Positions 1 through 51,129 of a stretch of 64,000 nt of DNA are shown piece after piece. Source of the stretch: a virus; IMG/VR virus record IMGVR_UViG_3300023240_001094, positions 9,452 to 73,451 of that record. One strand, 5' to 3'. Below the pieces are notes generated by a model. It saw only the letters and a program-made list of their open reading frames with translations. It was not told the origin of the DNA and did not search any database. A program made the translations under genes and the position numbers. Numbering within the stretch: position 1 is the first letter of the stretch; each line of letters begins with the position of its first letter.

Positions 1-69
1 ACATATGTATAATGAAAAAAGCCAGATATATTTCTATACCTGGCTCTTACTATTATATATCGTTATGGC

Positions 70-273
70 TTACGCTGCTATTTGGAGTGTTTCTTCGATT
101 TCTGCAATATGATCATCTAGATATGCCTTCTTATTAAGTACCTTATACATTCTATCCGTTTTTCCTTGTTTTTTATATCTCTCTGCTGCCCAGCCAAGGG
201 AACGAGAATCTTTTTTTAGGCGGTCGATTGTTACTGAAACCATAAGTATGTCTCCAAATAAAAAAGGTGCCAA
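70..273 (-). CDS. hypothetical protein (true start probably the internal ATG at 243)
   Basis: Short ORF after a terminator hairpin; GGAGA SD before MVSVTID; ends LQIAA. Confidence 0.55.
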   Translation of the reverse strand: MAPFLFGDILMVSVTIDRLKKDSRSLGWAAERYKKQGKTDRMYKVLNKKAYLDDHIAEIEETLQIAA

Positions 274-293
274 CCGCGAAACGGTGGCACCTT
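263..293 (-). terminator. Rho-independent terminator
   Basis: AAGGTGCCA-ACCG-cgaaa-CGGT-GGCACCTT hairpin with an A-run on + (U-run on -). Confidence 0.7.
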
Positions 294-322
294 CTGTTTA
301 AGTTTTAAGGTTATGTCTTAAA

Positions 323-736
323 CTATAGCAAGCCAGGGAAAGCCTCCTGTGCTAACTTGAGTGTCAGACCTTTCACTGGCGGCTTTTTGTTAATCATTTT
401 GCACACCAATTCTGCGTCCTTAGGATGAATTGATTCAACGATCCCAAGAAAAATCTTTTCACGTTTTACGGCAGGCATTTGTTCGCCTTTGCCGCCCTTT
501 GCACAATATAGAAAGTCTTTGTGTTTTTTGAGTAGTGTAGTAGGAGCGTTATGTGCATCACATGCTGTGTATGGCACTTCTCCGGCCGGTAGCAACCACT
601 GAATACGAGGATCGAGCGATCCTTGAACAATGTCACGTAGAGCAGCACTATTATTCTGCTGCAGTACCATAATCTTTTCCGCTCGTGTTTCAGCTTTAGT
701 AAACTTTTCAAGCACTTCGTAAATCATCAACGCCAT
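323..736 (-). CDS. conserved hypothetical protein of T4-like phages
   Basis: 137 aa; WLLPAGEVPY and KREKIFLGIVESIHPKDAELV resemble a family usually found beside rnh. Confidence 0.7.
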   Translation of the reverse strand: MALMIYEVLEKFTKAETRAEKIMVLQQNNSAALRDIVQGSLDPRIQWLLPAGEVPYTACDAHNAPTTLLKKHKDFLYCAKGGKGEQMPAVKREKIFLGIVESIHPKDAELVCKMINKKPPVKGLTLKLAQEAFPGLL

Positions 737-1590
737 TAAACAAATTCTCCTACACAGTCAATTAGCAAGTTGCAGTTATGTGAAACAAGATACGTGAAAA
801 CCTTACTACGGTTTTTACTACGATCCTGTCCTACGAATGTATTTATAATTTCCTGGCGCACTACTTCAGGACATTCTGATTCTTCAGTGAGATCAATCAT
901 TTTCTTGTTGCGAATATAGTTGCGATAGACATCTCCACCAAGAGCCTTTGGATCATCCATAAGGAGAGCTTTTTTCTTAGCACTAAGAACAACTTGGCGC
1001 CGGCCTTCAACAAACACACGATCGTCAGACAGCACATTTGGAACACCGTCACCACTATCACCCTTAAGGAAGTGTTCCATCTGTTCAAGACGCGGATTAT
1101 CTACTGTAATGAATTTCTTTGTTATAGGTGAGTATTGTGCAACATTAGAGTACTTGTGCAATTGCTTGAAGTCTTTGTCTGACGACACAATCATGATTTC
1201 CTCATAGTTACCAAATTCCTGAGACCATTTAACGATTTCAGCAATAGAGTCATCGGCCTCGCAGCCATATTGGTTGATGGTCTTATACGGAAAGTACTCA
1301 CCAAGTTCATCAAAAACTTTGTTGATTGTAGAGAACGCAACGTCCCAATCGATTTTAGATTCTTCACGTGATAAGCCACGTTTGCCCTTATATTCAGGGT
1401 ATACCTTCTTGCGCCAGTTGCCACCATTATCACCGATGACAACAACCTCGCCGTATTTGCTTCCAAACCTTTTGCGATACATACGGATGCTATTAAGGAT
1501 CATATGCCGAATAAGATTTTCATCACTCCAGTGAGCAGCGCCCATGGCAATAGGGGCAATTGAAATTCCTGAATAGTCAATTAAGATCAT
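736..1590 (-). CDS. rnh: T4-type RNase H (5'-3' exonuclease)
   Basis: MILIDYS, WRKKVYPEYKGKR, EADD, SSDKDFKQL and GDSGDGVPN motifs. Confidence 0.95.
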   Translation of the reverse strand: MILIDYSGISIAPIAMGAAHWSDENLIRHMILNSIRMYRKRFGSKYGEVVVIGDNGGNWRKKVYPEYKGKRGLSREESKIDWDVAFSTINKVFDELGEYFPYKTINQYGCEADDSIAEIVKWSQEFGNYEEIMIVSSDKDFKQLHKYSNVAQYSPITKKFITVDNPRLEQMEHFLKGDSGDGVPNVLSDDRVFVEGRRQVVLSAKKKALLMDDPKALGGDVYRNYIRNKKMIDLTEESECPEVVRQEIINTFVGQDRSKNRSKVFTYLVSHNCNLLIDCVGEFV

Positions 1591-1622
1591 GATGTAGTCC
1601 TTTTGTTATATTAATTATATTA

Positions 1623-1651
1623 GTTATACCACATAGAGTTACCAATGTACA
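1623..1651 (-). promoter_or_regulatory. early sigma70-type promoter TGTACA-N17-TATAAC
   Basis: Near-identical motif also at 15835-15863, 36300-36328 and 48406-48434. Confidence 0.75.
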
Positions 1652-1654
1652 CAC

Positions 1655-2080
1655 CTATTTTAGTAAACTTTGGACATGCGTGCGATGTATCTTACAGTTG
1701 ATAATTCCATTATAGTAACTATCATCTAGCAAGACATTCCTGTCGAACTGTTCCTTTGCCTCAAGATAGCCGAGCTCACCTTTAGACTTGCCGAAGTGGA
1801 TAATTTCGCGGTGGAAATTATCCACGCCGTGCTCAACAAGTCTCTGTTTTACTAGATCACTTGATCCGTAATACTTCATCCAATCAGACTCAGTAACAGA
1901 TCTACGCTTGCGCGTTTTACCCTTCAAAGGTTTAAGTGTTTTTTTGGCCCAGAATTGCTTCTTGCCTACATACTTTTTTGAGTTGGTTTTGTCTGTGATA
2001 ACGTAGACAAATCCAACCCATTTTTTTAATTCTTCTTCATCAGGTTCGTAAACCTTACCGCCATAGTGCCACATGACCAC
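1655..2080 (-). CDS. GIY-YIG family nuclease (conserved T4-like protein)
   Basis: GFVYVIT...KKYVGKK, YYGSS and YYN motifs. Confidence 0.75.
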   Translation of the reverse strand: MVMWHYGGKVYEPDEEELKKWVGFVYVITDKTNSKKYVGKKQFWAKKTLKPLKGKTRKRRSVTESDWMKYYGSSDLVKQRLVEHGVDNFHREIIHFGKSKGELGYLEAKEQFDRNVLLDDSYYNGIINCKIHRTHVQSLLK

Positions 2081-2122
2081 AATCCTTATACAACATATTA
2101 GTGCTAATGTTGTATATATGCC

Positions 2123-2278
2123 TTAGAATTCTTCGTCGTCATCTCCATCAAAGAAAGCATGCCCCGACACTTGGCCACACATAGAGCAAAATGAAGGTTC
2201 TTCTCTTTCGTCAACTACCACAACCCGAGTCTCTGAGCCACAGTAGTCGCATTCGCAAATGTATTCTGATAGTTTCAA
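2123..2278 (-). CDS. small zinc-ribbon protein (TTG start)
   Basis: CDYC...CSMC pairs and an acidic tail; GAGG SD upstream of the TTG at 2278. Confidence 0.6.
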   Translation of the reverse strand: MKLSEYICECDYCGSETRVVVVDEREEPSFCSMCGQVSGHAFFDGDDDEEF

Positions 2279-2303
2279 TTTTATGCCTCGCAGTTCTAAT
2301 TTG

Positions 2304-2372
2304 TATAAATAGTAATGTAGGTCACGGAATTGCACTTCCCACCTACTCTAGAAACAAAAGGAATTCCAGTTC
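2304..2372 (+). ncRNA. late promoter TATAAATA plus a conserved structured leader of a homing endonuclease gene (copy 1)
   Basis: GTAGGT-CAC-GGAA-TTGCAC-TTCC-C-ACCTAC-TCTAGAAAC...TTCCAG; covaries with the copy at 49661-49732. Confidence 0.7.
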
Positions 2373-3023
2373 ATGTATATATATATATATGTCTATTATG
2401 TTTACGCCTACATCAGACTTGACGGCACACCCTACTATATAGGTAAAGGGAGGGGCAAAAGAGCATATTCAAAACAACATTCTGTATGGGTTCCTAATAG
2501 AGAATCTGGACAAATAGTTATACTTGAAAATAATCTTTCGGAAGTAGGCGCATTTGCGATTGAAAGAAGACTTATCAGATGGTGGGGCAAGAAACACGAA
2601 GGTGGACTACTCTACAATAAAGCCGATGGTGGTGAAGGTAGAAGTGGATATAGTATATCTCGGCCACACACAGAAGAATCTAAGCAAAAAATGTCTAAAG
2701 CAAAGCAAGGTAAAAGTTATCCGAGACTTACTTCAGCTAATAGAAAAACTGCCGAAAAAAGACGAAATGTCCGTCTATCTGAAGAACATAAAGCCAAAAT
2801 ATCTGCTGGCATGAAAGGTAGAGTTATGACAGAAAATCATAAAGCAAATTTATCTAAGGCTAATGTTGGTCGTCCAGTAAGTGACGAAACCCGTTTGAAA
2901 ATGAAACTAAAAAATTCAGTCAAGTCTACCTGTCCACACTGTGGTAAAGGAGGTGGTGGTAGCGCAATGAAGCGCTACCACTTTGATAATTGTAAGTCTA
3001 TTAAACATTCATCCTTCGCATGA
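2373..3023 (+). mobile_element. free-standing GIY-YIG homing endonuclease with NUMOD3-like repeats
   Basis: YVYAY...PYYIGKG...RAY, LYNKADGGEG, HTEESKQKMS/SEEHKAKIS repeats, CPHC...RYHFDNC; opposite strand, overlaps the nrdA stop. Confidence 0.9.
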
Positions 3024-4652
3024 AATGCATAGCATGATATCACGCACAAGTTCTTGTGCTGGATTAGATGACCGCTGGTAGTAGAAAGTTTTTACACCCA
3101 AACGCCATCCTTCAATAATCAACGCGTTTATGTCTTTTGTTGATGCAGTTGGTGGAATCATAAGATTGAGTGATTGGCTCTGGTCTATATATTCTTGTCT
3201 TGCAGCAGCCTGCTGAACAACATTAATAGGACTAATCTCAGAGAATGTCTTAAACACATCTTTTTCATTCTGAGTGAGAAAGTCAAGATGCTGAACAGAA
3301 CCTTTCCTCATTAAGATTGAATCCCAGGTTGCATCATCATTCTTGCCGTAATGATCTAGACATCTAGCAAGATAACGGTTCTTATACGTGAAGGACCCTT
3401 TAGCCAAATCCTTAACAAAGTAGTTTGATGCAAGTGGCTCGATTGACGGCGATACTTGACCAAGGATAAATGATGAAGATGTTGTAGGAGCGATGGCGCA
3501 ACGAGTAAGATTGCGTACATCATAACCCATAAGACCTGACGGAACACCATACTCTTCTGCCATTTCCTTTGATGCGTCAAGTGATTTTTCATCGATGAAT
3601 CTACTAATTTCTTCAGTTAGTTCAAGTGCTTGGAATGACTCAAATGGGATCATTTTCTTCTGTAGAAGTGTGTGCCATCCAAGCTGACCAATTCCAAGAG
3701 CACGCCAGGTTTTTGCAAAGAGATTGGCCGACTCCATAAACTTAAGACCTTCTGTTTTGCGGATATATTCTTCCATAACAGCATCAAGGAAATATGTGAG
3801 AGTTTCTACAGCGTCAGTATATTTCCATTTGTCCCAGGTAGAAAGGTTCATTGATGATAGGTTACACACAAATGTCCATTCATCGCTTGATGGCAGACAG
3901 ATTTCTGAGCAGAGATTTGACGCCCAGATAGGAATGTTTTTGTCTTTAAGAACCTGTGGTTTATTGTCATTCACAGTATCAGAGAAGAACAGATATGGAT
4001 AACCAGTTTCCTTGCGCTTTCTGAGCACCTTAGCCCATACTTCGCGTTTGTCTGCATCGCCATCAATCATTTCCTGCATCCAGTAATCTGGAATAGTAAC
4101 ACCAATTGAGATATTCTGAATGGTTGCACCAGGTTCACGGATTTCTAGGAATTCCATAATATCAGGGTTATCAATGTTAAGATAACCAGCAAAAGCCCCG
4201 CGGCGAGTGGTACCTTGAGAAATAACGTCAGTGCCAACATCAAACAAGCGAAGGTAATGAACTGCTCCATCTGCTTTGCCTCCTCCTTTAATTTTACTAC
4301 CACGTGGTCGAATATCACCAAAATATCCAGATGTTCCTGCGCCGAGTTTGGTTTGGACACCAACCTCAGCTGTTTTTTGTAGAATAGCCTCAATAGAATC
4401 TTCCACGTAAACACCATTACATGAAATAGGAAGCCCTGTTTCTTCACCAAAATTTGACCATACTGGAGAGGAAAGGCTATAAAAACCCTGACTCATATAA
4501 TCATAGAACTTGTTAGCAAATCCCGGGTAGTCCAAGATTTCTTCTGCTGCTTCCGCAATTCTGCGTACGCGATCTTCAGGAGTCACACCTGGTTGTAAAT
4601 ACCCACGACTGAGGAACGTGCGTGAATCGTCGTTTAGCCATTTAAATGCCAT
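3009..4652 (-). CDS. nrdA: ribonucleotide reductase class I alpha subunit
   Basis: PISC, SNLCSEI, IAPTTSSS, YIDQSQSLN, KTFYYQR and C-terminal CxxC. Confidence 0.97.
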   Translation of the reverse strand: MAFKWLNDDSRTFLSRGYLQPGVTPEDRVRRIAEAAEEILDYPGFANKFYDYMSQGFYSLSSPVWSNFGEETGLPISCNGVYVEDSIEAILQKTAEVGVQTKLGAGTSGYFGDIRPRGSKIKGGGKADGAVHYLRLFDVGTDVISQGTTRRGAFAGYLNIDNPDIMEFLEIREPGATIQNISIGVTIPDYWMQEMIDGDADKREVWAKVLRKRKETGYPYLFFSDTVNDNKPQVLKDKNIPIWASNLCSEICLPSSDEWTFVCNLSSMNLSTWDKWKYTDAVETLTYFLDAVMEEYIRKTEGLKFMESANLFAKTWRALGIGQLGWHTLLQKKMIPFESFQALELTEEISRFIDEKSLDASKEMAEEYGVPSGLMGYDVRNLTRCAIAPTTSSSFILGQVSPSIEPLASNYFVKDLAKGSFTYKNRYLARCLDHYGKNDDATWDSILMRKGSVQHLDFLTQNEKDVFKTFSEISPINVVQQAAARQEYIDQSQSLNLMIPPTASTKDINALIIEGWRLGVKTFYYQRSSNPAQELVRDIMLCISCEG

Positions 4653-4661
4653 TATATTTCC

Positions 4662-5630
4662 TTAAAATAAATCATCTGCTGATACGCCTTGACCACGGGC
4701 ATAGTCTACTGGTCTGCCATTGAAAAAGTCAACCATGTTGGTTCCATATAAACCCTCATCAAACCATCTGGTTTCCTTAATCAAATCTTTGTCATATGTT
4801 AATTCACTTGAAAAGCCAATTTGCTCTAGTGATTCAACCATACGCTTCTTAATGAATTCAACTAGAATTTCTGAGTTCAATCCTGGTACTGAGTATTCAC
4901 CCATAATCCAACGGATCACTTCCGACTCACAGCGGATTGACTCTTCACATTCAAGTCGAATACGATCTTCAAGTTCTTCGTCGAACAGTTCTGGATACTC
5001 TTCACGGAGTGTGTTAATCAGTTTAATACCGACCTGAGCATGAAGCATTTCTTCATTACGCGTGTATTTAACTTGCTGTGCTGTATCCTTAAGGATAGCT
5101 TTGTTTTTGTTCATATGCAAGATGATGTAGAACTGGCTGAACAATGACACATTCTCAACAAACAATGTGAATAGTGTGATAGCATAGATATACTGTTTAC
5201 GGTCATCTGCATATACCTTCTTGAGGTACTTACGGAGATAGTCAACACGGCCAGCAACAACCGGGTGTTTCATGTTTTCTTCAAAGATGTCATTGAGCTG
5301 AAGAACTTCAAGGAGCTTTTCATATGCCATGTTATGGATAACTTCAGAGTTACCCATCGCGTATCCAAGATCACGTAGTGATGGATGTGGTAGGTTATCA
5401 CCTAGGTTAGACCAAAATGTTTTCACCGCAACTTCTATCTGACCAATTGCTGATAGTGTGCGGACAAGGATCCGTCTTTCTTCTGGACTCATGTCAGTCT
5501 TAAACTGACTATAATCAGACGTGAAATTGAATTCATCAGGAGTCCAAAACCCACTCCAAATTGCTTCAATAAAATCCTTGGTCCAAGGGTACATGTCAGG
5601 TTTTCTTGAGATTTGTTCTTCGAATAGCAT
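4662..5630 (-). CDS. nrdB: ribonucleotide reductase class I beta subunit
   Basis: FWTPDE, EVIHNMAY, ENVSLFSQF, NEEMLH and DFFNGRPVDY. Confidence 0.96.
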   Translation of the reverse strand: MLFEEQISRKPDMYPWTKDFIEAIWSGFWTPDEFNFTSDYSQFKTDMSPEERRILVRTLSAIGQIEVAVKTFWSNLGDNLPHPSLRDLGYAMGNSEVIHNMAYEKLLEVLQLNDIFEENMKHPVVAGRVDYLRKYLKKVYADDRKQYIYAITLFTLFVENVSLFSQFYIILHMNKNKAILKDTAQQVKYTRNEEMLHAQVGIKLINTLREEYPELFDEELEDRIRLECEESIRCESEVIRWIMGEYSVPGLNSEILVEFIKKRMVESLEQIGFSSELTYDKDLIKETRWFDEGLYGTNMVDFFNGRPVDYARGQGVSADDLF

Positions 5631-5790
5631 CTAATTTCTCCGGGTAAAGCTGTATAAGACATCGGTCCTGAAAACTATTTCAGGCAACAGCCTATATTGT
5701 TTTGATTTCTGATACCATTATATATAAGATCTCAGGTCTTGTAAACACTACATATTGCTATATTCACAAAATATTTTACACCATATTGCC

Positions 5791-6144
5791 TTAGTCGGCT
5801 GGTGGACCTGTTATTGCCTTTTCGTAGTAAGCAATAATTTCTTTCTGTTGTAGAATGTATCTACGGAGCTCTCCGACACCTATTGATAGGTTTTCATAGC
5901 CTTTTGGTGTGATCGCCATAAATGTGACCGATCCACCATGTTCATCAATCCTCTTCATAGCCTCGTCGAAGTTTTCTTCTGATACAACGAACCATTCACT
6001 ATCCGGAAAGTCTATAGGTTTTGGCCAAGCCTGAATAGGGATATTACGTTCAGTAAATTTGGTCTGTGTTACAATCTCTTTATCAATAGAAGAGGTACAG
6101 TTACTCAGAATCAGCAGGGCTGGAATCAACAGGAGTAGTTTCAT
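5791..6144 (-). CDS. outer-membrane lipoprotein, probable o-spanin
   Basis: Lipobox-like LILSNC after a hydrophobic signal; overlaps the upstream TM/coiled-coil gene. Confidence 0.7.
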   Translation of the reverse strand: MKLLLLIPALLILSNCTSSIDKEIVTQTKFTERNIPIQAWPKPIDFPDSEWFVVSEENFDEAMKRIDEHGGSVTFMAITPKGYENLSIGVGELRRYILQQKEIIAYYEKAITGPPAD

Positions 6145-6505
6145 CTTTTAGTTCCTCTCTTAGTCTGTCAATAGCGTTGTTTATACGAATAGCAAATCCA
6201 TCAGGATCAGCCTGAGCTTCTCGTACAATATCGATTTGGCTAAATCTTTTTCTTAATCCATCAAGTTTACCTTCAGCTGCCTGTAGGTTAGCCGTAAGCT
6301 CTCTATTGAGTTCTTCATTACGCTCTTGATTTTCTTCCATGGAGTCAACAGTCGCCTGAAGGGTCTCGGCTACTGTTTTGAGTTTGATGTTATTTTCACG
6401 TAGCAACGCAATTGTTGCCTGAGTCGATGTATAGTACCAATATACTCCACGAGACACAGAAGCAACCATTGCTATAATAAAGATTGCAACGTAAATTTTA
6501 ATCAT
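6101..6505 (-). CDS. probable i-spanin
   Basis: N-terminal TM helix followed by a long coiled coil; overlaps the lipoprotein gene. Confidence 0.7.
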   Translation of the reverse strand: MIKIYVAIFIIAMVASVSRGVYWYYTSTQATIALLRENNIKLKTVAETLQATVDSMEENQERNEELNRELTANLQAAEGKLDGLRKRFSQIDIVREAQADPDGFAIRINNAIDRLREELKDETTPVDSSPADSE

Positions 6506-6687
6506 TTCTTATCATCCATATATTGTCTGAATCTTTTAAGAACAACCGGAGCTTTGTCCTTACGGCGTCGACGGTCTGTTACATTATGTGCTTTAAACCG
6601 AGGACCCATATTCTTCGTGTCATTAGGAATACCAGCAGATGCCGCAGTATTACCGAGCTCTTCTTCTAGCGGGTTTCTTTGTTTCAT
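6502..6687 (-). CDS. hypothetical protein
   Basis: 61 aa, 4-nt start/stop overlaps with both neighbours. Confidence 0.6.
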   Translation of the reverse strand: MKQRNPLEEELGNTAASAGIPNDTKNMGPRFKAHNVTDRRRRKDKAPVVLKRFRQYMDDKK

Positions 6688-7280
6688 CTAACAATCTCCG
6701 ATGATGTGATGTATACTTTTTTGTTTGTTCTGATATGAGTTGCTTCATAGATGTTAATTCCAAAAATAGTGCCGACTGGTTTCGCATCTTCGGCAACCTT
6801 TACCTTAGATCCTTTGGCAACTGTCATTTCAACACCTTCAATGATCTTTTCATTCTTAAGAATATAAACTCCTGGAGACAGTGTTTGATCCTTTAATACG
6901 AACCAATTGTTTTCTTCAACCAACAAATCAGTCGGATCAACACCAATGTCACCAAGACCCTTTAAAATCTTTTTCTCTGATACACTATAGTTTTCTTTAA
7001 TAAGGTATAATGCGGCGGCATAAGACGCAAGCCGAGAGCTTCCACCTGGCGCTTTTGCCATAAGACGTTTCACATTAAATACAAGACGATGAAACGGTGT
7101 GTAAAAATTCTTAAACGCATCACGGTTTTCAATTGTATTCATTGAATAGTCTTTGTTGCGTTTTCCTGCAGCATCAATAATGCCTACCTCGAACGCTTTT
7201 GTTTTGTCAAATGGTGTTGTAAGAAGTGTGAGAAATCTAAATGTATAGACTAAATCACCAGCGCGTTTAATTATACCCAT
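6684..7280 (-). CDS. conserved hypothetical protein of T4-like phages
   Basis: Start MGIIKRAGDLVYTFRFL; YTPFHRLVFNVKRL motif. Confidence 0.7.
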   Translation of the reverse strand: MGIIKRAGDLVYTFRFLTLLTTPFDKTKAFEVGIIDAAGKRNKDYSMNTIENRDAFKNFYTPFHRLVFNVKRLMAKAPGGSSRLASYAAALYLIKENYSVSEKKILKGLGDIGVDPTDLLVEENNWFVLKDQTLSPGVYILKNEKIIEGVEMTVAKGSKVKVAEDAKPVGTIFGINIYEATHIRTNKKVYITSSEIVR

Positions 7281-7281
7281 A

Positions 7282-7650
7282 TTATAGTTCCTTAAGTTTT
7301 TTCTCAATGATTGGATCTGATTCAATATCAGCAAATTGACCAATTCGAACGTATTTTAAAAATTCTAAAAATGGTTTAACAGATCGCCAGTGATCGTCAT
7401 TAAATTTTATAGCAAGTATTCTAAGACTTGCATATGGACCAAATACGTTAAATATGACTACAAGATGGTTTAAAATTAATCTCGTCTGTAAATCACCTGT
7501 TTCAATGTTTCTGTTTAAGAGTCGTTTAACGTACTTAAAACGTTTGAGGTCAGCATAAAACTCATCCGGATCTATTGTTCCTAAAGGTGAGTAATAATGC
7601 TTGACCGCAAACTTTACCAAATTTTCTTCAAGCAATTCATCATTATTCAT
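7282..7650 (-). CDS. conserved hypothetical protein of T4-like phages
   Basis: EFYADLKRFKYVKRLL...RLILNHLVVIFNVFG motif. Confidence 0.75.
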   Translation of the reverse strand: MNNDELLEENLVKFAVKHYYSPLGTIDPDEFYADLKRFKYVKRLLNRNIETGDLQTRLILNHLVVIFNVFGPYASLRILAIKFNDDHWRSVKPFLEFLKYVRIGQFADIESDPIIEKKLKEL

Positions 7651-7656
7651 ATTATG

Positions 7657-7965
7657 TTATCTTTTTACCATTCCGGCTACTATATCTAGTAATTTTTTTC
7701 TTGAGGATCTACGGTCAAGCTCAACGCCAAATTCTTTACGAGCATATGCCTCAAGACCTTTTTTAGTCATTGCTTCAATATCATCATGGATACCATTAGT
7801 AGTAGTATCTATTACAATTTCTTCCTCAATTTTTACGCCGTTAAACGCGTCAATATCAGACTGTGAAAGTTTCTGTGACTTAAGTAGTTCCCCAGTCTTG
7901 GGGTGGCACCAACCCTTTAGAGTTGGTACCGCATTTTTTGCAAAATTAGGAGCTGCGATAGCCAT
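7657..7965 (-). CDS. hypothetical protein
   Basis: GWCHPKTGELL and MTKKGLEAYARKEFGVELDRR segments; in operon. Confidence 0.7.
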   Translation of the reverse strand: MAIAAPNFAKNAVPTLKGWCHPKTGELLKSQKLSQSDIDAFNGVKIEEEIVIDTTTNGIHDDIEAMTKKGLEAYARKEFGVELDRRSSRKKLLDIVAGMVKR

Positions 7966-7967
7966 TA

Positions 7968-8921
7968 TTATTTCCCATCATTCTTTGGCATTGTTTTGTC
8001 GCCAGCATCATTGTCCCCAGTTCGCTTTGGTGCTTTCTTTGTCATTGACTTAAATGTCTTAAAGTTAAGAGCATTTGTTGCAAGCTCGTCAGTAGCCGGA
8101 TTCATTGGTGTTGTTCTATCTAGCTCTTTTTTAGCGGATGGTGAAAGACCTTCGCCACGAGGAGAGCCATTGTTCATGTTACCATGATTCACTGCTTCAT
8201 TTTTACCCGACATAGTTGGAGCATCATGTGTACCTTTTTTAAGGCGGCCAATGATTCGACCACCGCTATTAGCTACAACGAAATCACCGTTGTTTGCAAC
8301 AGAGGTTCTATGACCGTGGTCTTTTGGCAGTCTTGTTTTACCAAGAGCTTTTAGCATAAGTTTATGGTTGGCATCGGTTTTAGCTTCGTCTAGTTCAACT
8401 TCTTCGTTCATCATTTTTCTGTGCAGCGCCTTAACTTGCTTTGCCCCAAGGATTACCATGTCCTTTCCGAAGGACGATGTTTGTACAAAAGTAATGCCAC
8501 CATCAGCTTCGTGAACAGCTTTAACACCGCCACCCAAATCTTGGATTACTTTTTTAGCTTCATCCAGTTCTTCAACAGATTCTTGTGTCAGAACTTCAAC
8601 CTCGGTTTCTTGGCTTTTGCCTTTCATCGATTTTGAAACGCCTTTGCGGCGCTTATGAAGATATTCATCAGATGAGTCCACATCACCATCGTTATCAATG
8701 TCTTTGTCTTTGCGGTCTTTGTGTTTACCTTTAAGAGCCTTGGCATCCACTGGATCCATTGCTTCTTTTTTGGTTTTGTCTTCTTTATCCCAAGGAGCTT
8801 TAGCAAGGGATACTTTATCCTTTGGTTGTGCTTTAACGCTTGCAAGCGCTCGGTCTTTAGCTGAAGCTTCAGCAACTTGTGCATATGCTTTTGCCATTGT
8901 GAGAATGTCTTTATAGTTCAT
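7968..8921 (-). CDS. putative internal head protein
   Basis: Charged, low-complexity; repeated VEELDEA/VELDEA sites; DIDNDGDVDSSD EF-hand-like loop. Confidence 0.6.
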   Translation of the reverse strand: MNYKDILTMAKAYAQVAEASAKDRALASVKAQPKDKVSLAKAPWDKEDKTKKEAMDPVDAKALKGKHKDRKDKDIDNDGDVDSSDEYLHKRRKGVSKSMKGKSQETEVEVLTQESVEELDEAKKVIQDLGGGVKAVHEADGGITFVQTSSFGKDMVILGAKQVKALHRKMMNEEVELDEAKTDANHKLMLKALGKTRLPKDHGHRTSVANNGDFVVANSGGRIIGRLKKGTHDAPTMSGKNEAVNHGNMNNGSPRGEGLSPSAKKELDRTTPMNPATDELATNALNFKTFKSMTKKAPKRTGDNDAGDKTMPKNDGK

Positions 8922-9203: not shown

Positions 9204-9490
9204 TAACACTTCCACCTTCTTAACGACATTGCTTTTCTAGTAGGTCTGCCCTTATCGTCTTTCATTGGACCGGGATTGCCACTCATTCTTGCACAGAAGC
9301 TTTTGCGTCTGCCAGCTGCTTTACTGCCTGCTTTAACTTTACCAGTAACCGCCGTTTTAAGATTGCCACCTGTTTTTTTATTATATGCCGAGACTCCAGC
9401 CTTGGTCATTCCAGCGCCCCTTTCAGTAGAACGGAAATGCCCCTTGGAATCTGCTCCTCTTTCAATTATATATGATTTGAAAGATTGCAT
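9203..9490 (-). CDS. small basic protein with a capsid-targeting-like N-terminus
   Basis: MQSFKSYIIE start; RRKSFCARMSG...LRRWKC motif. Confidence 0.75.
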   Translation of the reverse strand: MQSFKSYIIERGADSKGHFRSTERGAGMTKAGVSAYNKKTGGNLKTAVTGKVKAGSKAAGRRKSFCARMSGNPGPMKDDKGRPTRKAMSLRRWKC

Positions 9491-19849: not shown

Positions 19850-20022
19850 GATACGGTTTCTGTTTCTAGGCCACGTATCAGACCCACATGGCTTATGCCG
19901 CTAGGGCAGAACCAAAAGGAGATGCATTTGTGTTTGCATTTAGTAGTTGTGACTGAATAACGTAGGTCAACACGGTAAACTCCATTTCATTTTCACACCT
20001 GTCGATCCTAAATTTCAGCCCC
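19850..20022 (-). ncRNA. ssrA: two-piece tmRNA, coding piece; tag (A)ANTNASPFGSALAA
   Basis: 5' GGGGCTGAAATTTAGGATCGAC; PK1-like CGTG/TACG + TGAC/GTCA; resume codon GCA at 19937, TAA at 19895-19893; 3' end approximate. Confidence 0.92.
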
Positions 20023-20466
20023 ATCATCATTGTTCTTTTTCTTAGCATGAAAGTTTAAACCAGGACTAACTGCCTTTTTACCTTGGCCTCTAATCCAACC
20101 ATCAGGAACATCTGCTCCTTCTTTAAAGCAACTTCTTTGAGTAGGATCACTAGGATTGTGATACCATTTCAAACCTTGTGTAGAACCTTTGCTTCTTGTA
20201 TAGGGTCTGTATTTCATACCCTTACGATTAGCATTGCCTTTAGCCGCACCCTTTTTACCAGATTCGCTTAACATTTCTCTAACCAATTCTTCTTTAGTTA
20301 AGAGACCTGCTAAACCTTGCCAAGCCAATTTATCTTCCCATCTACCATACTTCTCATATAGATTTTTATGCGCTTCTGCATGTTCTTCGATGGTAAGTTC
20401 TACTAAGTTACTTTCTTCGTCTGATCCGCCCAAATGCTTTGGGATGATATGGTGTTTATGTTTCAT
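20008..20466 (-). mobile_element. HNH homing endonuclease within the tmRNA intervening segment
   Basis: HKHHIIPKHLGGSDEESNLVELTIEEHAEAH; KWYHN...PDGWIRG C-terminal module. Confidence 0.9.
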
Positions 20467-20479
20467 TCTAAGCCCTCTT

Positions 20480-20512
20480 ATCTATCCTATTTCTATTTAT
20501 AATAGGATAGAT
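20480..20512 (-). promoter_or_regulatory. 12-bp hairpin enclosing a late promoter upstream of the HNH gene
   Basis: ATCTATCCTATT/AATAGGATAGAT arms; TATAAATA at 20501-20494. Confidence 0.75.
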
Positions 20513-20526
20513 TTCAAGAACAATCA

Positions 20527-20590
20527 TGGTGAAGCTGCTGGGTACCGCCCCCAGGTCCAGAATGTGTCCACGTTGCTTCAACGTTTACAA
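20527..20590 (-). ncRNA. ssrA: two-piece tmRNA, acceptor piece
   Basis: GGACCTGGGGGCGGTACCCAGCAGCTTCACCA (alphaproteobacterial-type T-arm, encoded CCA); GTAAAC and CACAT pair with the coding piece; TGTACA-N17-TAAATT promoter at 20622-20594. Confidence 0.92.
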
Positions 20591-36817: not shown

Positions 36818-36861
36818 ATATGTATAAATAGTGTTGTAAAAACTATTTATAGGAATTTAAT

Positions 36862-49100: not shown

Positions 49101-49660
49101 TCAATATTCACTATATTTCTTATTAGGACTTTTACATCTGTGTGATATAGTGGTTCTATGAATTCTAGTTAATTTAGATGCTTCTGTGAGTGTTTCATAT
49201 GTGGAACCATCAATATAGACAGGTTGTGCTCTTGGGTTATCTTTGGGGTTATCTTTGCCTTTCATGATAGGAAGATGATGATTTCCCGCTGCAAATCTCT
49301 TTTGTATAACTTTGAAAGATGAGGCTTTGGTATGGAGTTTGCAATCCTTACGGCTTGCTTCTGTTTATCAGTTGGGGTTCTTCCATAAAATGGATTACCT
49401 TCTCCACTATTTTTATCTGACATTTTTTTCTTCCATGCCAAAGACTTGGGTTTCTTTTGCAGCTCTTTAATAGCTTCTGCTTTACTAACCTGTCCGAGTA
49501 ACATTCTACTGGCAACCAGGTCTTGATGCCATCCGTGTTTGTTGTATAAATCAAGATGAGCTTGTGCGTGTTCTTCAATTGTAAGTTCTACTAAATTTGA
49601 CGGATCGTCTGATCCACCCATATGCTTAGGAACTATGTGATGTTTGTGATATATAGTCAT
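49101..49660 (-). pseudogene. frameshifted HNH homing endonuclease (HNH + NUMOD3-like + NUMOD1-like)
   Basis: HKHHIVPKHMGGSDDPSNL; the -1 frame from about 49301 gives ...PVYIDGSTYETLTEASKLTRIHRTTISHRCKS. Confidence 0.8.
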
Positions 49661-49732
49661 GCTGGAACTTTCTTTCTTGTGTTTCTAGAGTAGTTGGATG
49701 TTGGTGCATCGTGAACTACATTTATATTTATA
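49661..49732 (-). ncRNA. late promoter plus a conserved structured leader of a homing endonuclease gene (copy 2)
   Basis: TATAAATA..GTAGTT-CAC-GATG-CACCAA-CATC-C-AACTAC-TCTAGAAAC...TTCCAG. Confidence 0.7.
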
Positions 49733-49753: not shown

Positions 49754-49779
49754 AAAAAAAGAGCGCCGAAGCGCTCTTT
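49754..49779 (-). terminator. gp23 terminator
   Basis: AAAGAGCGC-cgaa-GCGCTCTTT with a U-run on -. Confidence 0.85.
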
Positions 49780-49812: not shown

Positions 49813-51129
49813 TTATGCAAGGATATTATCGACGCGAAATATGCGATAATATTGGTTAGTCTTAGCAGTTGCAAGACCGTCTGCAGGAGTAGCACCAACG
49901 AATGGGTTAGAAGCCATGCCGTAGCGTGTCTTGAAACCAATTTTAGGCTGGAACGTTTCCTCAGCAACGGCGCGAACCATTGTAAGCGGTACGTATGGGC
50001 AATAGAATACACCGGCGTCATATGGGTTTGTGCCCTTATAGCCTACGTTGATGTAATCTGTAGCAGCATATGGATCGATATAGATCTTCATGCGACCGTT
50101 AAGAACACCAGCGAATGTGTTGCCTGTATCGTCTACGTTAAGTGTTGTTGACATTGCAGGAGCATAGTCAAGCATACCTGAAGCTGCAAGAGCAGATGCT
50201 ACGTCTGAAGATACGATCGCAAAGTTACCTTTACCGCGTCTTGTTTCTTTAGCAATTACGTTTGCTTCACGCTCAAGCTGAAGAATAAGACCTTTGATCT
50301 TCTCTACGCTCCAACGACCATCCGCATCTGTTGACAAGTCAAAGATACCGTTGATTGCTGTGTTAGCTGTACCAGCACCAGTTTTAGCTTGGCTGTTGAT
50401 TGTACGGATAACTTCGCGGTTGATTTCTGCAAGAATCTCAGTTGAGAGAATGTTTGCAAGCTCTGTTTCAGCATCAAGACCGTGGATTGCTTTCAAGTCT
50501 TGTGCAAGTTCTAGGCTGTACTCAGCTTTCAACGCGCGTGATTTCGCAGTCACTGTCGCTTTTTCGATGGTGAAGCCCATCTCGTTGAATGAAGAACCAC
50601 CAGTTGAACCAAGTGCTTCGGCGTCAGTCGTTGGCATACCAGAAGCAACCGATGGACCTGTGCGATCATTGTTGATTGAGCTGTCTGAGTTGGAGTCTGT
50701 AAGACCAGCAAGACCTGATGGTCCACCAGTTTGTGTTACAGATGAGTCACCTGAGAACGCAGTGTTAGCTTCGTTGAAGAGAGCTTCTGTTGAGCTTGTT
50801 GAACCAGCACCGTAGCGTGATTTCATCGCAAAGATAAGACCAGTTGGGCCAGTCATTGGCTGAACGCCAGCAACATCATATGCCATCATGTTCGGCATTG
50901 CGCGGCGAACAAGTGAGATAAGAACTGGGTTCCAGTTAGCAGTGCCGCCGGTGTTGTTACCAGGTGCAGCTTCTGTAAGCATGTTGTTTTGAGCAGATTG
51001 TGAAGCGAATTCACGCTCTTGGTTCTCAAGAACAACTGCAGTTACGGCACGACGGTGAGCGTCTTTAATTTCTGTGCCTTCATTGAGAACTGGTGCCCAT
51101 TTCTCTGTTAGGTTATCGTATGTGTCCAT
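49813..51129 (-). CDS. gp23: major capsid protein
   Basis: GVQPMTGPTGLIFAM, AQDLKAIHGLDAE and FQPKIGFKTRYG. Confidence 0.98.
   Translation of the reverse strand: MDTYDNLTEKWAPVLNEGTEIKDAHRRAVTAVVLENQEREFASQSAQNNMLTEAAPGNNTGGTANWNPVLISLVRRAMPNMMAYDVAGVQPMTGPTGLIFAMKSRYGAGSTSSTEALFNEANTAFSGDSSVTQTGGPSGLAGLTDSNSDSSINNDRTGPSVASGMPTTDAEALGSTGGSSFNEMGFTIEKATVTAKSRALKAEYSLELAQDLKAIHGLDAETELANILSTEILAEINREVIRTINSQAKTGAGTANTAINGIFDLSTDADGRWSVEKIKGLILQLEREANVIAKETRRGKGNFAIVSSDVASALAASGMLDYAPAMSTTLNVDDTGNTFAGVLNGRMKIYIDPYAATDYINVGYKGTNPYDAGVFYCPYVPLTMVRAVAEETFQPKIGFKTRYGMASNPFVGATPADGLATAKTNQYYRIFRVDNILA

Follow-up and report, generated by a model that had tools for sequence, protein, structure and literature searches.

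A portable two-hairpin module between facing late-promoter boxes at homing endonuclease genes of uncultured T4-like phages, with base pairing that suggests selection of the fold on the strand facing away from the gene

The stretch of DNA studied here, called the window, comprises 64,000 nucleotides (positions 9,452 to 73,451) of the IMG/VR virus record IMGVR_UViG_3300023240_001094, itself a 73,451-base (73 kb) fragment. It holds four endonuclease-like genes, and two of these are preceded by copies of one module, in which about 75 nt folding into two hairpins, H1 and H2, sit between two facing late-promoter boxes. More than 100 distinct copies of the module were seen in viral contigs. We read it as a 5' control cassette that free-standing homing endonuclease genes carry in a clade of uncultured T4-like phages. 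The kinds of base pairs that its relatives use suggest that selection acts on the fold in the strand complementary to the endonuclease gene, referred to below as the bottom or antisense strand. Our best reading is that the module would be a portable bidirectional late-promoter cassette whose fold works in an antisense or outward transcript. We give even odds (about 0.5) that it restrains or times the endonuclease as a cis-antisense element, or provides the outward transcript with a stable structured leader or an insulator, or does both.

A module shared by unrelated nuclease genes

Read in the direction of the endonuclease gene, the module consists of the late-promoter box TATAAATA, 3 to 5 nt, H1, one base, H2 with the endonuclease Shine-Dalgarno (SD) sequence in its loop, a C, the ATG and then TATTTAT, the complement of ATAAATA. 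An earlier note, made by a model from the letters of the window, had described the two window copies as a covarying structured leader RNA shared by unrelated endonuclease genes and lying downstream of a late promoter. Both copies read exactly as written there, the promoter being of the T4 type, with H1 and H2 wholly past the predicted start of transcription. In copy 1, H1 is built of a 6-bp outer stem, a CAC/C internal loop, a 4-bp inner stem and a 6-nt terminal loop; in relatives, the middle base of CAC pairs with the bulge base. Between copies 1 and 2 one outer and three inner pairs of H1 have changed, all of them with compensation, as the note had said. Folded alone, H1 reaches -10.8 kcal/mol in copy 1 (z -3.5; 1 of 200 shuffles folded as well) and -8.2 kcal/mol in copy 2 (z -3.8; 0 of 200).

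The box TATAAATA is enriched in the window, with 16 occurrences against 5.04 expected, a number that 0 of 100 shuffles equalled; 14 of these boxes are on the strand that codes for almost every gene. Only two of the 16 are followed by the module with its hairpins, namely those before these two endonuclease genes. There are exactly two occurrences of the 13-mer CTACTCTAGAAAC in the window, and the whole 73,451-base record also has two.

Relatives were collected by pattern scans of viral contigs; the resulting counts are lower bounds, and several stem positions were fixed by the search pattern. The full pattern of promoter, H1 and TCTAGAAAC matched at least 35 stretches. A pattern of the box plus the 5' half of H1 matched at least 118, with 116 unique contexts among the matches listed. 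A complete H1 was present in 111 of the 116, the other five being chance matches, and in most of the 111 contexts TATAAATA lies 63-79 nt ahead of the start codon. The full scheme could be parsed by a model-free regular expression (regex) in 100 of the 111. Among the 11 variant contexts, three (L286, L291 and L347) are degenerate or truncated past H1 and eight have the AUG shifted into the 3' arm of H2. In this shifted subfamily (L257, L285, L293, L295, L305, L329, L331 and L358) the start codon lies in AUGUCCAGC or AUGACCAGC, the former ATG site reads AAT or ACA, the N-terminus is about five residues longer, and TATTTAT or TACTTAT is retained. A 14-mer scan of viral contigs was also tried and set aside as too unspecific, with the promoter context in 6 of 117 stretches.

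A complete open reading frame (ORF) follows the module in 102 of the 111 contexts, with a median length of 199.5 aa. Pfam was run on the 97 distinct complete ORFs of at least 80 aa and, with the overlap of families per member not broken down, found NUMOD3 in 38, GIY-YIG in 15, HNH in 7, and HNH_3, HNH_5, a TnsA-like endonuclease domain and an I-TevI DNA-binding domain in two each. Many of the 97 ORFs had no Pfam match at E 0.001. The view that one module serves unrelated nuclease families stands on these comparisons, and with 95 distinct copies and the Pfam results the earlier note's portable, covarying element is borne out.

In a scan of genome contigs most matches were due to chance. A true module was present in 6 of 120 listed loci (L377, L413, L426, L442, L444 and L476), all on contigs of metagenome-assembled genomes; the bins other than that of L476 are labelled Bacteroidetes, Haliscomenobacter, Gammaproteobacteria, Bacteroides and Luteolibacter. 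They are probably phage contigs swept into bins and carry no host evidence. The major capsid protein of the record shares 61-65% identity with its counterparts in Phage C48C1, Methylophilales phage Melnitz and Pelagibacter phage HTVC008M. A megablast of window positions 1-8000 against cultured phages gave no match, blastn of a phage collection with copy 2 and with a member of the common subfamily returned chance pieces of 22-25 bases or nothing, and the H1 pattern was found in none of the four whole records of S-SRM01, C48C1, Melnitz and HTVC008M.

Covariation of the two hairpins

A covariance model was built from 35 copies and searched over the window and 99 loci, which yielded 109 matches, 95 of them distinct. 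Standard pairing was found in 99.1% of cells in the 95 distinct copies, against 32-54% in controls with slid partners. Fifteen of the 17 pairs change on both sides; 323 cells show such changes against 89.9 in shuffles, and 0 of 500 shuffles reached the score. These figures come from an alignment fitted to the model and from sequences that are related to each other. On this comparison, compensatory change keeps the helices beyond both the shuffled and the slid controls. The search for further homologues with conserved pairing, which the earlier note had proposed as a check, thus came out in favour of the element.

The inner pairs of H2 take many forms (GAAAC/GUUCC, ACGCU/AGCAU, AUACU/AGUAU, ACAUU/AAUGU, AUUCU/AGAAU and UGUC/GACA) on a foot, CUA.../...CAG, that is invariant across copies. 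By the variety of these forms, H2 is a real helix.

The earlier note had not recognised a named RNA family, and we likewise found no Rfam match to the module. With Rfam 15 at the gathering threshold, the only match in the whole window was tmRNA_permuted, away from the module. With the E-value raised to 10, the two copies gave scattered matches of 11-19 bits against cut-offs of 40-80, none of which spanned the module. A ribozyme or tRNA-like reading was dropped, since none of the Rfam models for ribozymes or tRNA gave a match and only one subfamily has the GAAA in CTAGAAAC.

Strand bias of the fold

The two strands of the module do not pair equally well. Across the 95 model-aligned copies, 1582 of 1597 cells hold standard pairs on the antisense strand, including 175 G.U, whereas the sense strand has 1409 of 1597 with 2 G.U. 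The seed alignment likewise has 68 G.U antisense and 0 sense. An A.C mismatch on one strand is a G.U pair on the opposite strand. When the 100 copies parsed by regex are read on the sense strand, H2 pair 3 is A.C in all 100, pair 4 is A.C in 14 against G.U in 3, pair 5 is C.A in 22 against G.U in none, and the middle base of CRC faces the bulge as G-C in 57, A-U in 17, A.C in 26 and G.U in none. In the model alignment, 93 of the 94 distinct relatives scored have A.C at H2 pair 3 on the sense strand, hence G.U on the antisense strand; there is one A-U and one gap. When this invariant pair is left out, the G.U count is still 82 antisense against 2 sense.

Minimum free energies were compared for the same 95 copies. 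The core averages -17.0 kcal/mol on the antisense and -13.0 kcal/mol on the sense strand, the antisense strand being the more stable in 88 copies. H2 accounts for -5.8 antisense against -2.2 kcal/mol sense, while the means for H1 are nearly equal (-10.0 and -9.6 kcal/mol). In the strand comparison of the window copies, H1 and H2 of copy 1 fold at -10.5 and -3.2 kcal/mol on the minus strand and at -9.6 and -0.7 kcal/mol on the plus strand; in copy 2 the corresponding values are -9.1 and -2.5 kcal/mol antisense and -7.0 and 0.0 kcal/mol sense. Because the sole mismatch used is the one that keeps the other strand paired, and mere weakness on the sense strand would allow any mismatch, these data point to a bottom-strand fold under selection. 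We infer that the functional fold would be a bottom-strand RNA.

In the reading of the earlier note the hairpins act in the late endonuclease mRNA, whether as a 5'-terminal stabiliser, as the site of a translational repressor or as a mask over the SD sequence, and we consider it rather unlikely. The module does lie between the late promoter and the ATG of the 102 complete ORFs, and in 62 of 100 copies H1 begins at the sixth base after the sense box, where transcription starts in T4. On the sense strand H1 folds well by its mean energy, the SD sequence is in or at the loop of H2, and endonuclease genes of T4 and Aeh1 are described as using late promoters together with hairpins (PMC2988022, seen in part). 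Yet an RNA selected on the sense strand should shift between G-C and A-U by way of G.U and not of A.C, and the sense strand has just 2 G.U cells against 175 on the other; sense H2, too, is marginal on average and in both window copies. The whole sense leader also folds no better than its shuffles (z -0.64 in copy 1 and -1.15 in copy 2). GGAG lies mostly in the H2 loop, and we found no stable sense-strand hairpin that pairs the SD sequence. The second hairpin that the note had placed around the SD region of the mRNA is barely stable on that strand, and H2 probably does not act as a leader of the endonuclease gene itself; H1, which folds on both strands, may have a role on the sense strand.

An inverted late-promoter box past the start codon

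Two features absent from the earlier note are an inverted late-promoter box past the ATG and the mostly opposite orientation of the endonuclease genes. TATTTAT follows the start codon perfectly in 67 of 100 copies. It occurs at four offsets from the ATG that cover all three frames (ATG NNT ATT TAT, ATG ATA TAT TTA, ATG TAT TTA and ATG ATA TTT ATT), and the second codon ends in T irrespective of the amino acid. Because it is present in all three frames, TATTTAT is conserved at the level of nucleotides and not of codons. It lies 6 nt from the end of H2 in 54 of 97 copies and between 5 and 8 nt from it in 88, with the ATG shifting within the spacer, and this spacing has its counterpart in the 3-5 nt that separate the sense box from H1. 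The G before CUG is the sixth base after the inverted box in 58 of 97 copies. At the would-be -13 position of a bottom-strand promoter the base is T in 28 copies, A in 28, G in 10 and C in one. For T4, whose late box spans -13 to -6, the parts of the literature available to us give 32 of 50 late promoters as perfect and 9 of 50 with A instead of T at -13 (PMC2988020). In the part of a further source that we saw, NATAAATA is the late motif reported for cyanophage S-PM2 (PMC2984593).

Pairs of boxes were surveyed at spacings of 3-120 nt in 3.29 Mb of loci, which took in those of the 3'-half pattern scan. The survey found 181 face-to-face pairs of TATAAATA...TATTTAT, of which 144 at 60-89 nt are the modules and 18 lie at 10-19 nt; control arrangements in the same 3.29 Mb numbered 40 direct and 26 back-to-back pairs. 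The short pairs (TATAAATA, 12-21 nt, TATTTATA) stand between divergent genes, each with its SD sequence and ATG just past the box of the other. Loci with short face-to-face late boxes include L142, L284, L290, L186, L295, L150 and L085. In the window, the third endonuclease-like gene is preceded by TATAAATA (36823-36830), 13 nt and a perfect inverted TATTTATA (36844-36851), without the two hairpins; an ATG on the minus strand lies at about 36774, near this box pair. From their arrangement, short face-to-face boxes appear to be a compact bidirectional late-promoter design of these phages, and the module looks like the usual bidirectional unit with two hairpins inserted between its boxes.

The same complementarity could serve a gate of the T4 kind, which we regard as quite improbable. 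Here a read-through RNA would pair UAUAAAUA with the UAUUUAU past the AUG in a helix, P0, and the three-way junction of P0, H1 and H2 would shut the ribosome site; late transcripts, which start past the box, would lack P0 and hence be translated. The logic is that published for I-TevI, segB and Aeh1 mobE, in which a late promoter lies within an inhibitory structure (PMC2988022 and PMC2677866, both seen in part), and among the elements described here only a possible helix between box and TATTTAT would act in that way. The 7-mer past the ATG is exactly complementary to the box in the 67 perfect copies, in all three frames, and the third window gene has its box pair right before the SD sequence. 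P0 would, however, consist of seven A-U pairs closing a large junction, and no covariation of the helix was seen. With the T>C variants of TATTTAT (16 of 100) the helix would have A.C on the sense but G.U on the antisense strand, and no compensating change was seen beyond the ATG where the sense box reads CTAAATA (L269:5809, L306:912 and L338:6283). A further point against the gate comes from the orientation of the genes.

Orientation relative to neighbouring genes

Taking the longest open frame within 1.5 kb as the orientation of a flank, the dominant upstream ORF and the endonuclease gene point in opposite directions in 74 of 99 loci (p 8.5e-7), and the downstream flank is opposite in 61 of 84. 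Of the 74 loci at which both flanks could be judged, 50 have the two of them opposite to the gene, 12 have the two co-oriented with it, and 12 are mixed. With 74 of 99 genes facing against their upstream neighbours, the sense read-through on which the gate would depend should be rare. A divergent ORF of at least 100 aa has its first ATG 0-35 nt past the complement of the box in 27 of 69 loci, and at some other divergent loci a σ70-like promoter lies between the module and the ORF. In the common opposite arrangement, read-through should in any case bring bottom-strand RNA across the module, even if the inverted box does not fire. T4 endonuclease genes are reported, in the portion of the source seen, to be co-oriented with their neighbours in all cases except segD (PMC2988022), unlike the module genes, which are mostly opposite.

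Endonuclease-less alleles and signs of exchange at the DNA level

Locus L291 (3818-3883) is an endonuclease-less allele of L341 (5085-5811), with flanks that are 84% identical. The 607-bp difference between the two starts one base after H1, and L291 retains the promoter, H1 and about 75 nt at the ORF's 3' end. Other modules with short ORFs or none were seen at L286, L306, L316, L320 and L347. The tips of H1 occur in both orientations: two whole inner hairpins and seven loop sequences, one of them 12 nt long, are found as exact reverse complements. Examples of such flips are L313 against L311 and L326, and L355 against L357. The sequences suggest that these flips arose by inversion through template switching in quasi-palindromes.

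These observations would also suit an element that works as DNA, with quasi-palindromes that form bottom-strand single-stranded hairpins or supply shared homology for shuffling promoters and endonuclease ORFs, and with part of the compensated changes owed to template switching and not to RNA selection. Such a reading seems to us improbable, at the same level as the gate. It would draw on the flipped tips, on the L291 allele and its breakpoint right past H1, on the same 5' module in front of several nuclease families in different frames, and on the strand bias itself, since G.T is the best-tolerated DNA mismatch. PeSL cassettes of promoter and stem-loop have been proposed to mediate shuffling in T4-like phages, in those parts of two papers that we saw (PMC2839356, PMC4122927). 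A cruciform in double-stranded DNA, in contrast, needs both strands folded and predicts no bias between G.U and A.C; template switching yields perfect pairs and would not create conserved wobble; and the fixed distance to the promoter boxes and the start codon is as for a transcribed element.

A possible role for the bottom-strand RNA

In the reading that we prefer, the bidirectional cassette with a fold on the bottom strand, a bottom-strand RNA would start from the inverted box or belong to read-through from neighbouring genes. It would begin at or near the base of H2', the bottom-strand form of H2, at about the G before CUG. The loop of H2' would present the anti-SD sequence CUCC, and H1' would follow, with the U-rich complement of the sense box at the end of the RNA. 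Such an RNA would match the endonuclease mRNA in perfect complementarity between +1 and the start codon, and it would most likely restrain or time translation of the endonuclease as a cis-antisense RNA. It may in addition act as a stable 5' leader or an insulator for a transcript that runs outward into the phage gene alongside. Of the two hairpins, H1 alone would fold well in the endonuclease mRNA, 5'-terminal from about +1, and the A.C mismatches of H2 would leave the ribosome site open.

A narrower version can be put forward only tentatively. Here the module would define a family of cis-antisense RNAs of about 80-90 nt, made from a late promoter inverted in the first codons of the endonuclease, that throttles translation of the nuclease and travels across GIY-YIG, HNH and TnsA-like genes. 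The asymmetry of G.U and A.C would then give a strong fold in the antisense RNA and a weak one in the mRNA, with the anti-SD sequence presented by a loop; we hold this version to be less likely than not.

Several observations weigh against a selected bottom-strand RNA with its own promoter. TATTTAT is altered in 33 of 100 copies (T>C in 16, T>A in 13, A>G in none, and multiple changes in four), and both window copies carry TATATAT, or ATATATA when inverted, in place of the consensus box. Because the window copies and these relatives deviate, an antisense promoter would not be general unless the variants are active. A perfect box showed no association with flank orientation (18 of 23 loci with co-oriented and 43 of 68 with opposite flanks). 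The evidence from flank orientation itself depends solely on the longest open frame within 1.5 kb. A simple terminator scan of either strand flags nothing at the module. As to the fold, pairs 1-3 of H2 are invariant, so that covariation does not show their G.U, which we infer there; H1 folds about equally on both strands and begins at the predicted +1 of the endonuclease mRNA; G.T pairs would equally fit a bottom-strand single-stranded DNA; and template switching at the DNA level can make compensated pairs without RNA selection. A scan for σ70-type promoters found none convincing for the module, the one weak match (9 of 12, minus strand) overlapping the copy 1 box.

Relation to known systems

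The closest published description is that of Dassa et al. 2009 (PMC2677866), which we could compare by its text in part. It reports a hairpin in 15 of 16 endonuclease 5' untranslated regions at metagenomic 'fractured gene' loci, 10 of them with TATAAATA, in which two conserved complementary motifs pair in a stem before free-standing GIY-YIG and Vsr-like genes. The hairpin was taken as a translational block like that of Aeh1 mobE, and one locus had lost the endonuclease and kept the hairpin. Those loci, too, come from uncultured T4-like phages, in marine and lake samples, and the endonuclease-less one matches the L291/L341 case. Compared by text description only, that hairpin is probably identical in sequence to the module. 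The earlier note's idea of a portable element holds and has in part been published before. Dassa et al. describe, in the parts seen, one sense hairpin; a second hairpin, a test for covariation, a strand bias, an inverted box and statistics on orientation are absent from those parts. Our literature search found no paper that gives the family a name or remarks on its strand bias, inverted box or orientation, but Figure S4 of PMC2677866 or the motif lists of PMC10690425 may hold the motif.

In T4 I-TevI/II/III, in segB and in Aeh1 mobE, a very stable hairpin masks the ribosome-binding site and the late start lies inside it, according to the sections available of PMC2988022. The module shares with these genes a TATAAATA late promoter beside an RNA structure near the ribosome site, and late-only expression is described for them. 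It differs in that both hairpins lie past the start, the one next to the SD sequence has little stability on the sense strand, and the pairing pattern speaks for the other strand.

PeSL elements, again from partial sources (PMC2839356, PMC4122927), resemble the module as small portable units of promoter and stem-loop that are repeated within and between genomes, and they have been linked to the shuffling of variable regions. They combine a σ70-like early promoter with a terminator stem-loop, a combination that the module lacks; it has instead facing late boxes of the gp55 type and two covarying hairpins, and it is tied to endonucleases.

A precedent for antisense RNA over a phage endonuclease gene is CfrI of cyanophage S-PM2 (Millard et al. 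2010, via PMC2984593, seen in part), which overlaps a homing endonuclease gene, is co-expressed with it and is thought to be regulatory. Its host is a T4-like phage of the same family-level group. CfrI, of about 225 nt, links the endonuclease gene to psbA, whereas an antisense RNA of the module is a prediction from sequence.

Stem-loops at the 5' terminus stabilise bacterial mRNAs such as ompA and need no conserved sequence. Both predicted transcripts of the module would likewise begin at, or 1-2 bases from, the foot of a hairpin. Unlike in such stabilisers, the feet of the module's helices and their junction (CUG/UAG and GUAG/CUAC) are nearly invariant.

The two copies and other features of the window

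The features of the window are collected in Table 1. The copy 1 ORF has a GIY-YIG-like pattern at its N-terminus and a Pfam match to NUMOD3 (7.4e-11); the Pfam GIY-YIG model did not reach the threshold of 0.001 on it. Its tblastn matches are annotated as homing endonuclease or Seg-like. It lies between nrdA and a small zinc-ribbon ORF and is reversed relative to all its neighbours, the genes of the window being almost all on the minus strand. The beginning of this ORF (2373-2392) is a (TA)n run (ATG TAT ATA TAT ATA TAT G..., MYIYIYVYYVYAY) at a site where relatives encode M-x-I-Y-Y-V-Y-A-Y, and it looks like a dinucleotide expansion that destroyed the inverted box. Adjoining copy 1, a SegE-type GIY-YIG endonuclease ORF (1655-2080, minus strand; Pfam 2.2e-34) has the orientation of the neighbours and is without the module.

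The copy 2 ORF matches NUMOD3 (8.7e-06) and HNH (5.3e-04, under the curated HNH cut-off). It lies immediately downstream of the major capsid gene (49813-51129, minus strand; Pfam Gp23, 8e-147), with both in the same orientation.

The tmRNA_permuted match, to a permuted transfer-messenger RNA (tmRNA; RF04321), lies at 19893-20588 on the minus strand and scores 59.1 bits where the cut-off is 47 (E 6.5e-09). The model has 213 positions, yet the match covers 696 bases and overlaps an ORF at 20008-20466. ARAGORN found no tmRNA and no tRNA in the window, so that this match is unconfirmed.

Table 1. Features of the two module copies and associated elements in the window (positions of the window).
Feature	Position	Strand	Basis or remark
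Module copy 1	2304-2375	+	sequence
Copy 1 late-promoter box TATAAATA, T4-type	2304..2311	+	sequence
Copy 1 spacer GTAAT, between box and H1		+	sequence
Copy 1 hairpin H1, GTAGGT/CAC/GGAA-TTGCAC-TTCC/C/ACCTAC	2317..2346		sequence, folding, covariation in 95 relatives
Copy 1 TCTAGAAAC...TTCCAG	2347-2369	+	sequence
Copy 1 hairpin H2, CTAGAA...TTCCAG, SD region in loop	2348..2369		single T separates H1 and H2
Copy 1 degenerate inverted box, TATATAT within (TA)n run, at the TATTTAT site of relatives	2376..2382	-	sequence
Copy 1 endonuclease-like ORF, 216 aa, ATG at 2373	2373..3023	+	ORF list
Module copy 2	49732-49658	-	sequence
Copy 2 late-promoter box TATAAATA	49725..49732	-	sequence
Copy 2 hairpin H1, GTAGTT/CAC/GATG-CACCAA-CATC/C/AACTAC	49690..49719		sequence, folding
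Copy 2 hairpin H2, CTAGAA...TTCCAG	49662..49688		sequence, folding
Copy 2 variant inverted box (TATATAT on gene strand)	49649..49655	+	sequence
Copy 2 HNH and NUMOD3 endonuclease-like ORF, 132 aa, ATG at 49660	49262..49660	-	Pfam
Terminator-like hairpin and T-run, ends the capsid gene transcript, just upstream of copy 2	49758..49779	-	terminator scan
Third endonuclease-like gene, HNH_3, 183 aa	36862-37413	+	opposite to neighbours

Conclusions

No selfish genes are commoner in large phages than free-standing homing endonucleases, and to our knowledge the way in which phages tolerate them is known in detail for only a few genes of T4 and Aeh1. The module adds a widespread and sharply defined control unit that is common to unrelated nuclease families in abundant aquatic T4-like phages. 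Its covariance model can locate endonuclease cassettes, and the scars left without an endonuclease, in metagenomes, and the module offers a compact bidirectional late-promoter part for expression systems of the T4 type. If the antisense fold is true, it would also be a clear natural case of G.U against A.C, in which one DNA segment has different stabilities in its two transcripts, and it would provide a general antisense restraint or insulator that lets endonuclease genes insert backwards among phage genes.

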